Assembly: GCA_951406725.2 (NCBI GenBank)
Contig: OX597821.1
Coordinates: 14,384,001-14,448,000, forward strand
Reading direction: 5' to 3'
DNA length: 64,000 bases
Origin: Octopus vulgaris
Lineage: Eukaryota
Shown here in pieces: positions 19,264 to 21,736 of the stretch. Position numbers and translations under genes: made by a program. How positions within the stretch are numbered: the stretch's first letter is position 1; each line of letters starts with the position of its first letter. Under the pieces are notes generated by a model. That model saw nothing but the letters and a program-made list of their open reading frames with translations. It ran no database searches and was not told the origin of the DNA.

Positions 19264-21736
19264 AATAATAATATTTCTAAAAGGGATATAGACAGTAACT
19301 GCTCGATAACATAAGGGACTAAGCCATCTGAATATGGCTAGGGACAGGGCAGGGTGGTGGGGGTGTTACTGTTGCATTTAGCCCCAGGCGAACATCGACG
19401 TCACCGTGTGTGGTTTCCGCTTCATCGGGGAATTACCTCCCTTTGCAGGTTTAGGGCACCGTGACGGTGTCGAGCCTTTCTGGTGACGTCGATGTTCGCC
19501 TGGGGCTAAATGCAACAGTAACACCCCCACCACCCTGCCCTGTCCCTAGCCATATTCAGATGGCTTTAGTCCCTTATGTTATCGAGCAGTTACTGTCTAT
19601 ATCCCTTTTAGAGAATTATTATTGCTTTCGAACAGATTTTCGAAATCAGCAAATGTATTTTGCTTGAAAATCTATATAAGAAATCCTGCATAGTGAGAAT
19701 TCGTCGAGGAAGCGGAGGCCTACCACACGCCGATGATAGGCAATACACCTTGAAACCATGGTCCGTGTGTGGATTCCGCTTCATCGGGGAATTACCTCCC
19801 TTTGCAGGTTTAGGGCACCGTGACGGTGTCGAGCCTTTCTGGTGACGTCGATGTTCGCCTGGGGCTAAATGCAACAGTAACACCCCCACCACCCTGCCCT
19901 GTCCCTAGCCATATTCAGATGGCTTTAGTCCCTTATGTTATCGAGCAGTTACTGTCTATATCCCTTTTAGAGAATTATTATTGCTTTCGAACAGATTTTC
20001 GAAATCAGCAAATGTATTTTGCTTGAAAATCTATATAAGAAATCCTGCATAGTGAGAATTCGTCGAGGAAGCGGAGGCCTACCACACGCCGATGATAGGC
20101 AATACACCTTGAAACCATGGTCCGTGTGTGGTTTCCGCTTCATCGGGGAATTACCTCCCTTTGCAGGTTTAGGGCACCGTGACGGTGTCGAGCCTTTCTG
20201 GTGACGTCGATGTTCGCCTGGGGCTAAATGCAACAGTAACACCCCCACCACCCTGCCCTGTCCCTAGCCATATTCAGATGGCTTTAGTCCCTTATGTTAT
20301 CGAGCAGTTACTGTCTATATCCCTTTTAGAGAATTATTATTGCTTTCGAACAGATTTTCGAAATCAGCAAATGTATTTTGCTTGAAAATCTATATAAGAA
20401 ATCCTGCATAGTGAGAATTCGTCGAGGAAGCGGAGGCCTACCACACGCCGATGATAGGCAATACACCTTGAAACCATGGTCCGTGTGTGGTTTCCGCTTC
20501 ATCGGGGAATTACCTCCCTTTGCAGGTTTAGGGCACCGTGACGGTGTCGAGCCTTTCTGGTGACGTCGATGTTCGCCTGGGGCTAAATGCAACAGTAACA
20601 CCCCCACCACCCTGCCCTGTCCCTAGCCATATTCAGATGGCTTTAGTCCCTTATGTTATCGAGCAGTTACTGTCTATATCCCTTTTAGAGAATTATTATT
20701 GCTTTCGAACAGATTTTCGAAATCAGCAAATGTATTTTGCTTGAAAATCTATATAAGAAATCCTGCATAGTGAGAATTCGTCGAGGAAGCGGAGGCCTAC
20801 CACACGCCGATGATAGGCAATACACCTTGAAACCATGGTCCGTGTGTGGTTTCCGCTTCATCGGGGAATTACCTCCCTTTGCAGGTTTAGGGCACCGTGA
20901 CGGTGTCGAGCCTTTCTGGTGACGTCGATGTTCGCCTGGGGCTAAATGCAACAGTAACACCCCCACCACCCTGCCCTGTCCCTAGCCATATTCAGATGGC
21001 TTTAGTCCCTTATGTTATCGAGCAGTTACTGTCTATATCCCTTTTAGAGAATTATTATTGCTTTCGAACAGATTTTCGAAATCAGCAAATGTATTTTGCT
21101 TGAAAATCTATATAAGAAATCCTGCATAGTGAGAATTCGTCGAGGAAGCGGAGGCCTACCACACGCCGATGATAGGCAATACACCTTGAAACCATGGTCC
21201 GTGTGTGGTTTCCGCTTCATCGGGGAATTACCTCCCTTTGCAGGTTTAGGGCACCGTGACGGTGTCGAGCCTTTCTGGTGACGTCGATGTTCGCCTGGGG
21301 CTAAATGCAACAGTAACACCCCCACCACCCTGCCCTGTCCCTAGCCATATTCAGATGGCTTTAGTCCCTTATGTTATCGAGCAGTTACTGTCTATATCCC
21401 TTTTAGAGAATTATTATTGCTTTCGAACAGATTTTCGAAATCAGCAAATGTATTTTGCTTGAAAATCTATATAAGAAATCCTGCATAGTGAGAATTCGTC
21501 GAGGAAGCGGAGGCCTACCACACGCCGATGATAGGCAATACACCTTGAAACCATGGTCCGTGTGTGGTTTCCGCTTCATCGGGGAATTACCTCCCTTTGC
21601 AGGTTTAGGGCACCGTGACGGTGTCGAGCCTTTCTGGTGACGTCGATGTTCGCCTGGGGCTAAATGCAACAGTAACACCCCCACCACCCTGCCCTGTCCC
21701 TAGCCATATTCAGATGGCTTTAGTCCCTTATGTTAT
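19264..21736 (+). mobile_element. Retrozyme-like non-autonomous element: ~140-bp inverted arm (19264-19405) plus 6.5 tandem 359-bp hammerhead-containing units
   Basis: Units start at 19405, 19764, 20123, 20482, 20841, 21200 and 21559; I saw only one substitution (19773). The left arm is the reverse complement of part of the unit. Both ends lie in (TA)n. Confidence 0.88.
19724..19769 (+). ncRNA. Type I hammerhead ribozyme, first of six copies spaced 359 bp apart; predicted cleavage after C19763
   Basis: CACACG-CCGATGA-tAGG caataca CCTt-GAAA-CCATGG-TC^CGTGTG: 6-bp stem I that extends further, U4C core variant, stem II, GAAA, palindromic stem III and a GUC triplet. Confidence 0.82.

Follow-up and report, generated by a model that had tools for sequence, protein, structure and literature searches.

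The window analysed here (64,000 nucleotides of Octopus vulgaris, contig OX597821.1, positions 14,384,001 to 14,448,000) carries a tandem array of 359-bp units, with a predicted type I hammerhead ribozyme in each full unit. The array belongs to a young, dispersed non-coding element, which fits the metazoan retrozymes lacking long terminal repeats (non-LTR retrozymes) on every feature examined here from sequence. It is probably a non-autonomous retrozyme of this kind, copied in trans by the reverse transcriptase (RT)/GIY-YIG protein of a Penelope-like element (PLE). Retrozymes were already known in molluscs. What is new is that the insertion ends themselves bear the two-site signature of PLEs, a link which in the literature, as far as covered here, had been a hypothesis only. 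The texts consulted, which included passages of PMC7761336, PMC11722881, PMC10886601 and PMC8579666, just named PLEs as candidate mobilisers; according to a 2020 review, the repeats lack any motif that would reveal what mobilises them (PMC7761336). Literature searches returned neither a cephalopod retrozyme nor PLE tails on retrozymes; Repbase and Dfam, which lay outside these searches, may list the family as a non-autonomous Penelope, and the insertion figures of PMC7229834 may bear on novelty.

Insertion structure and genomic distribution

Tandem Repeats Finder reported 6.5 copies with a period of 359 at 19404-21736, and unit comparison revealed a single substitution, at 19773. Both agree with the earlier note, made from the letters of the window, which had described 6.5 head-to-tail units with one differing base. 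Units are numbered here from the base following the predicted hammerhead cut (phase 1). Their GC content is 46.8 %. The longest stop-to-stop frame in the array was 98 aa, with no coding frame and no open reading frame (ORF) combining RT and GIY-YIG, as the note's verdict of no credible ORF had it. No LTRs were present, the arms being free of terminal direct repeats. A 142-bp arm in inverted orientation (19264-19405) abuts the array head to head; it matches phases 78-219 of the unit at 97.9 % identity (three differences). The outer ends of both arms lie in a TA microsatellite. Arm and array form one insertion, so that the element is larger than the array alone: the extent first proposed (19405..21736) gave the array bounds correctly and missed the inverted arm.

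The family is dispersed. A 27-nt word from the hammerhead has 798 exact copies in the genome, and 279 unit matches were found at the best 40 of 586 candidate places. Loci were chosen for the presence of a full unit, irrespective of their ends; the 39 analysed were the best 40, including the window, minus L055, where an apparent variant family turned out to be a noisy consensus. Two divergent arms were encountered at 28 of the 39 loci. At 26 of these 28, one outer 3' end fell within phases 170-178, in most cases at 178, and the other within 218-222, in most cases at 222; the remaining two displayed a rearranged or cut left arm, and no locus had two like ends. Among the 11 loci with a single orientation, nine ended at the short site and two at the long one. 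The two fixed outer ends are thus internal to the unit and 44 nt apart. Inner 5' ends were scattered, and arms reached up to 15 units. Exact junctions of these ends to TA numbered 537 (short) and 769 (long) genome-wide, to which close subfamilies may contribute. On contig C1, which had 46 short and 63 long ends, all 28 exact-junction pairs less than 12 kb apart were divergent and combined a short with a long end. TA-rich flanks occurred on both sides at 25 of the 28 divergent loci; candidate target duplications of 12-13 nt were seen at L044 and L045, and duplications were unreadable inside (TA)n.

PLE insertions are described as comprising partial tandems, an inverted 5'-truncated copy and a one-ended tail of 30-40 bp, with a bias for (TA)n (PMC8557442). 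The protein of an anole PLE cuts and extends both target strands, prefers AT-rich DNA and starts reverse transcription at two internal RNA sites, the tail lying between them (PMC11167929). The fixed two-site ends of the octopus family gave direct genomic support to the earlier supposition that a Penelope-like RT is involved.

It is very improbable that the unit is instead a repeat of the short interspersed element (SINE) type copied with twin priming by a long interspersed element (LINE). Inversions arise through L1 twin priming, and an RVT_1 frame (22295-23140) lies near the array. Twin priming leaves one variable outer end, whereas both outer ends here are fixed at internal sites, with neither a poly-A nor a repeat tail. 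The RVT_1 frame is part of a broken LINE-type RT fragment (22295-23746, E 1.5e-31), which lies outside the array, across 560 bp of microsatellite, and does not belong to the family.

A satellite expansion or an assembly artefact with a chance hammerhead is barely credible. The near-identity of the units would suit it, as would the facts that polishing can homogenise arrays and that the L055 consensus was noisy; against it stand the spread over many contigs, the varied lengths, fixed ends, target duplications and locus-specific variants, and the recovery of the full unit in independent public runs. The unit was present, whole or in part, in 20 of 24 listed public runs, none recorded as RNA. A run from another organism contained a full unit with one inserted base and seven substitutions, among them one at N7, a free position of the core. 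Contigs wrapped from unit end to unit start in 4/4 runs, a pattern that tandem DNA gives too. The 798 exact word copies, the layout at 39 loci and the covariation described below all speak for a very recent retrozyme, as had been proposed, and not an assembly artefact.

Hammerhead conservation and sister families

By inspection, the motif displays a type I layout with a stem I of 6 bp and a stem II made of a U.U mismatch plus 3 bp. The core is CCGAUGA (U4C), GAAA is present, and stem III is the palindrome ACCAUGGU. One type I hammerhead per full unit, with six cut positions following GUC, had been predicted before; these match the GUC triplet ends in the array (the predicted cuts of Table 1), to which the U4C core and the U.U mismatch are added here. 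A relaxed hammerhead descriptor, drawn up after the motif had been seen, gave one match in the unit and none in 20000 dinucleotide shuffles.

A fold alignment of 13 sequences from four families had 94 % of its cells paired, and pairing dropped to 14-47 % in slid-alignment controls. Changes on both sides were found in 5 of the 15 hammerhead pairs across the four families. The C3-G8 pair was kept in all 13 sequences (eight CG, five UA), and stem III was a distinct perfect palindrome in each family, a mark of dimer-type hammerheads. The predicted hammerhead appears to be conserved through compensatory change, including that from C3-G8 to U3-A8, a swap also known in PLE hammerheads (PMC4209133). 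As a circle, the monomer is predicted to fold at -113 kcal/mol (z -4.3, 60 shuffles) with 67 % of its bases paired.

Sister units span 354-360 bp. Family 2, with 3166 first-look candidates, has units of 354-357 bp that are 66-68 % identical to the 359-bp unit along their length. At 30 loci of this family, 12 of the 14 divergent ones displayed the same two ends, a count read by eye since the automatic class limits had been too narrow, and 10 of the 14 had target duplications of 10-14 nt (one mismatch and some slack allowed). Family 3 displays the canonical core CUGAUGA and family 4 the core UUGACAA, an instance of the U3-A8 swap; both share the two ends of family 1. Family 4 has a period of 356-360 and a 25-nt word with 200 exact matches. 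Together the families offer a natural series of hammerhead core variants.

Two core haplotypes were observed in family 2, U4C with a C.A mismatch and U3-A8 with a G-C pair (L086:2056-2108, L099:1709-1760), both being present at L086. Older sister-family copies also occur in the window, at 4546-5055, 6176-6664, 7673-7776 and 15496-15562, with 72-78 % identity to the unit over phases 87-224; the copy at 6176-6664 has a nested inverted structure.

Resident Penelope-like elements and the proposed route of insertion

The search for a driver by GIY-YIG scored 150 of 6136 candidates and yielded two young PLE families; RT and GIY-YIG frames were found in both PLE proteins tested. The first, at L135:2126-4468 and 14 other loci, is represented by 15 intact frames of 781 aa (median identity 99.3 %). 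It displays a Cys linker of Neptune type, a U3-A8 hammerhead and a CRE/CCAAT-rich end repeat, and would be Neptune-like if its clade is judged by the linker description in PMC8557442. A region upstream of its frame resembles a second coding stretch. Copies of the second (L149:1821-4990) are 99-100 % identical; its hammerhead combines a U4C core with a U.U mismatch at stem II and a stem III that is palindromic. In TA, the short end was separated from the long one by 38 nt in the 781-aa PLE and by 30 nt in the L149 family, the latter at one locus. The wider flanks of PLE-B, inspected at four loci, gave no further ends. No sampled PLE was alike in sequence to the unit; what is well supported is the class of the driver, not a particular PLE family. 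With young, intact PLE proteins encoded in this very genome, the question of the mobiliser becomes directly testable.

Two candidates for a closer link were rejected. A family-3 copy beside the L149 PLE resembled the 3' end of that PLE and proved to be an insertion in its own right: in 39 further copies, the PLE ends short of it; a pair spaced by 5.6 kb at L101 is a local duplication without PLE frame. At L167, the flanks of a PLE insertion beyond its TA runs seem to be mutual reverse complements.

The unit might be a solo pseudo-LTR, consisting of promoter, hammerhead and tail, cut down from an autonomous PLE. This concerns origin and is compatible with mobilisation by a PLE; we regard it as somewhat unlikely. 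TATA, hammerhead and RT start sites follow one another as they do in the resident PLE ends, and the L149 element shares all three hammerhead traits just listed. All four families nevertheless keep a unit of 354-360 bp with no trace of an ORF, the sampled PLEs lack homology to it, and stem I and the rod-like fold resemble those of canonical retrozymes.

Copying in trans by a PLE, the preferred reading, would proceed as follows. A TATA-type promoter in each unit may give rise to read-through RNA whose 5' end lies about 60 nt upstream of the cut. One record hints at such a promoter: in run X1, one contig of the hammerhead strand starts at 20062, 30 nt past a TATA-like box, and its loose end matches the SMART template-switch oligo. 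Contig depths ranged from 8 to 70 and are unfit for ranking expression. Families 2 and 4 display a similar TATA-like box. As suggested by the covariation and the literature, the hammerhead would then cut at GUC, in a reaction that is probably slow and favoured in dimers held together by the palindromic stem III, and cleavage would leave 359-nt monomers, which a host ligase could close, along with uncut multimers. The genomic footprint suggests that a protein, presumably that of the PLE, cuts an AT-rich or (TA)n target on each strand, with the two nicks about 10-14 bp from one another, and that each 3'-OH primes reverse transcription at one fixed internal RNA site, at phase ~176-178 or 221-222. 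Both cDNAs would pass unit junctions, on either a circular or a multimeric template, end at variable places and be joined head to head. Internal initiation would allow RNA without a free 3' end to be copied. The scheme makes predictions at the base level (RT starts at phases ~178 and 222, nicks ~10-14 bp apart), and the element offers a small ORF-free template for studying how PLEs make inverted insertions.

The nature of the template was approached through unit variants, whose patterns may be blurred by assembly polishing. Some variants occurred at just one of the 39 loci; at L058 (13/13 pieces, 11/11 and 2/2) and L053 (5/5 pieces, 1/1 and 4/4), such private variants were seen in all units of the two arms. 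The both-arm variants of L051 were common to one other locus, and L056 displayed private variants in a single arm (5/5). At L045, three different units follow each other in identical order in both arms; variant blocks were found at L032/33, L037, L052 and L054, and alternating variants at L042 and L049. Arrangements like these call for a multimeric template, for template switching or for conversion at a later stage. Taken together, the patterns fit monomer circles as well as multimers and may be read as incomplete cleavage, with both templates used. These ordered mixtures and the reported lower activity of U4C hammerheads speak partly against a pure monomer-circle picture.

It could be that only uncut linear multimers are copied by the PLE; the hammerhead would then be slow or not needed for insertion, and circles would be by-products or missing altogether. 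We consider this unlikely, even though the ordered run at L045 and the blocks and alternations elsewhere would suit it, insertion by the anole PLE was unaffected in hammerhead mutants (PMC11167929), and the sole RNA contig crosses the cut site. Private variants throughout both arms or single arms fit a monomer, though homogeneous source arrays could produce them too, and the core was kept, with compensation, over 33 % divergence. A bolder proposal is that the circle is the true template, with one PLE dimer priming both target strands at two internal sites on it and rolling round in both reactions. We put it forward tentatively, at somewhat less than even likelihood. If true, the fixed tail of 44 nt would supply the 'missing motif' by which the mobiliser of retrozymes in animals can be named, and an RNA of 359 nt without sequence likeness to a PLE would suffice to recruit one.

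Several points weigh against a PLE-driven retrozyme with an active hammerhead. The check recommended by the earlier note, an Rfam search with Hammerhead_1 (RF00163), was negative: no Rfam hammerhead reached the gathering score in the window, no Rfam match at E<=10 fell within 19900-20500, and five sister-family loci likewise lacked an Rfam hammerhead. (A weak Hammerhead_1 match at L176:897-940 (-), 21.6 bits, belongs to a different, unrelated element, probably another PLE end.) Independent covariation events were few because the four families are related, and the structure tested for covariation was taken from one of the sequences. A natural U4C hammerhead was much slower in vitro, if still sufficient in vivo (PMC3088659), and the hammerhead fold lies 7.4 kcal/mol above the minimum of the circle. 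Seven arrays hold blocks or ordered unit mixtures that one monomer circle cannot give. The 5' ends of arms were not piled at the cut: 2 of 54 lay within 3 nt (p 0.23), and the 6 of 54 in phases 1-12 (p 0.009, post hoc) amount at most to a slight excess. In the window, the right arm starts precisely at the predicted cut; this was dropped as proof of cleavage, since such starts were not enriched across loci, and a surplus of phase-1 values in one count was due to the length filter applied. Finally, none of the sampled GIY-YIG loci, including both young PLEs, shares sequence with the unit, and the tail measures 44 nt as against 38 and 30 nt in these two PLEs.

Comparison with known systems and features of the window

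Like the metazoan non-LTR retrozymes of coral, mussel and axolotl (Cervera and de la Pena 2020, PMC7229834), the octopus element consists of tandem non-coding units within 150-450 bp, each with a type I hammerhead, a GC content below 50 %, a self-paired circle (here predicted) and target duplications of more than 4 bp. Mussel units (350-390 bp) are close to it in length, and axolotl HHR_Amex2 also displays U.U at the base of stem II (PMC7229834). It differs from these retrozymes, as described in the text available, in its divergent two-arm insertions, two fixed ends and 44-nt tail, and in cores that vary among families (U4C, U3-A8, canonical). RNA circles were shown for metazoan retrozymes (PMC7229834), whereas the octopus families are known here from sequence.

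With Neptune-type PLEs (PMC8557442, PMC4209133) and anole Poseidon (PMC11167929) it shares partial tandems, an inverted 5'-truncated copy, a one-ended tail and the (TA)n bias, as well as a hammerhead upstream of the 3' end, the U3-A8 core variant and a palindromic stem III. Unlike PLEs, it has a 359-bp unit without ORF repeated up to 15 times per arm, its tail is 44 nt long instead of 30-40, and the sampled PLEs do not match it in sequence. Newt satellite 2 and cricket pDo500 are likewise tandem repeats with hammerheads working as dimers; these form long satellite blocks, in contrast to the dispersed short arrays with a retrotransposition footprint seen here.

Table 1. Coordinates of the insertion, its parts and related features in the window
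Feature	Position	Strand	Basis
Left arm, inverted, 5'-truncated, phases 78-219; outer end is the long (tail-bearing) end	19264..19405	-	unit comparison
Right arm, 6.5 head-to-tail 359-bp units, phase 1 to short end at phase 178	19405..21736	+	repeat detection, unit comparison
Type I hammerhead 1, predicted cut after 19763	19723..19772	+	descriptor, covariation
Type I hammerhead 2, predicted cut after 20122; U4C core, U.U at 10.1-11.1, palindromic stem III	20082..20131	+	descriptor, covariation
Type I hammerhead 3, predicted cut after 20481	20441..20490	+	
Type I hammerhead 4, predicted cut after 20840	20800..20849	+	
Type I hammerhead 5, predicted cut after 21199	21159..21208	+	
Type I hammerhead 6, predicted cut after 21558	21518..21567	+	
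TATA-like box (20032-20039) and candidate transcription start (20062), recurring in each unit; weak	20032..20062	+	one contig
44-nt 'tail', phases 179-222, between two putative RT start sites (one internal unit shown)	20301..20344	+	end phases
Left target flank, (TA)n-rich	19200..19263	.	
Right flank, microsatellite of (TA)n, (AC)n, (AT)n	21737..22293	.	
Older sister-family (family 2) insertion, divergent two-arm layout, 12-13-bp target duplication	4546..5055	.	

Three further features were observed in the window. A 112-bp direct duplication lies within a SINE-like repeat at 18519-18742. A metazoan signal recognition particle (SRP) RNA gene or pseudogene was detected at 44443-44736 (+) with 137.6 bits, and an Rfam potassium channel RNA editing signal at 62528-62641 (-) with 65.6 bits, the latter probably belonging to an exon of a Kv channel gene.
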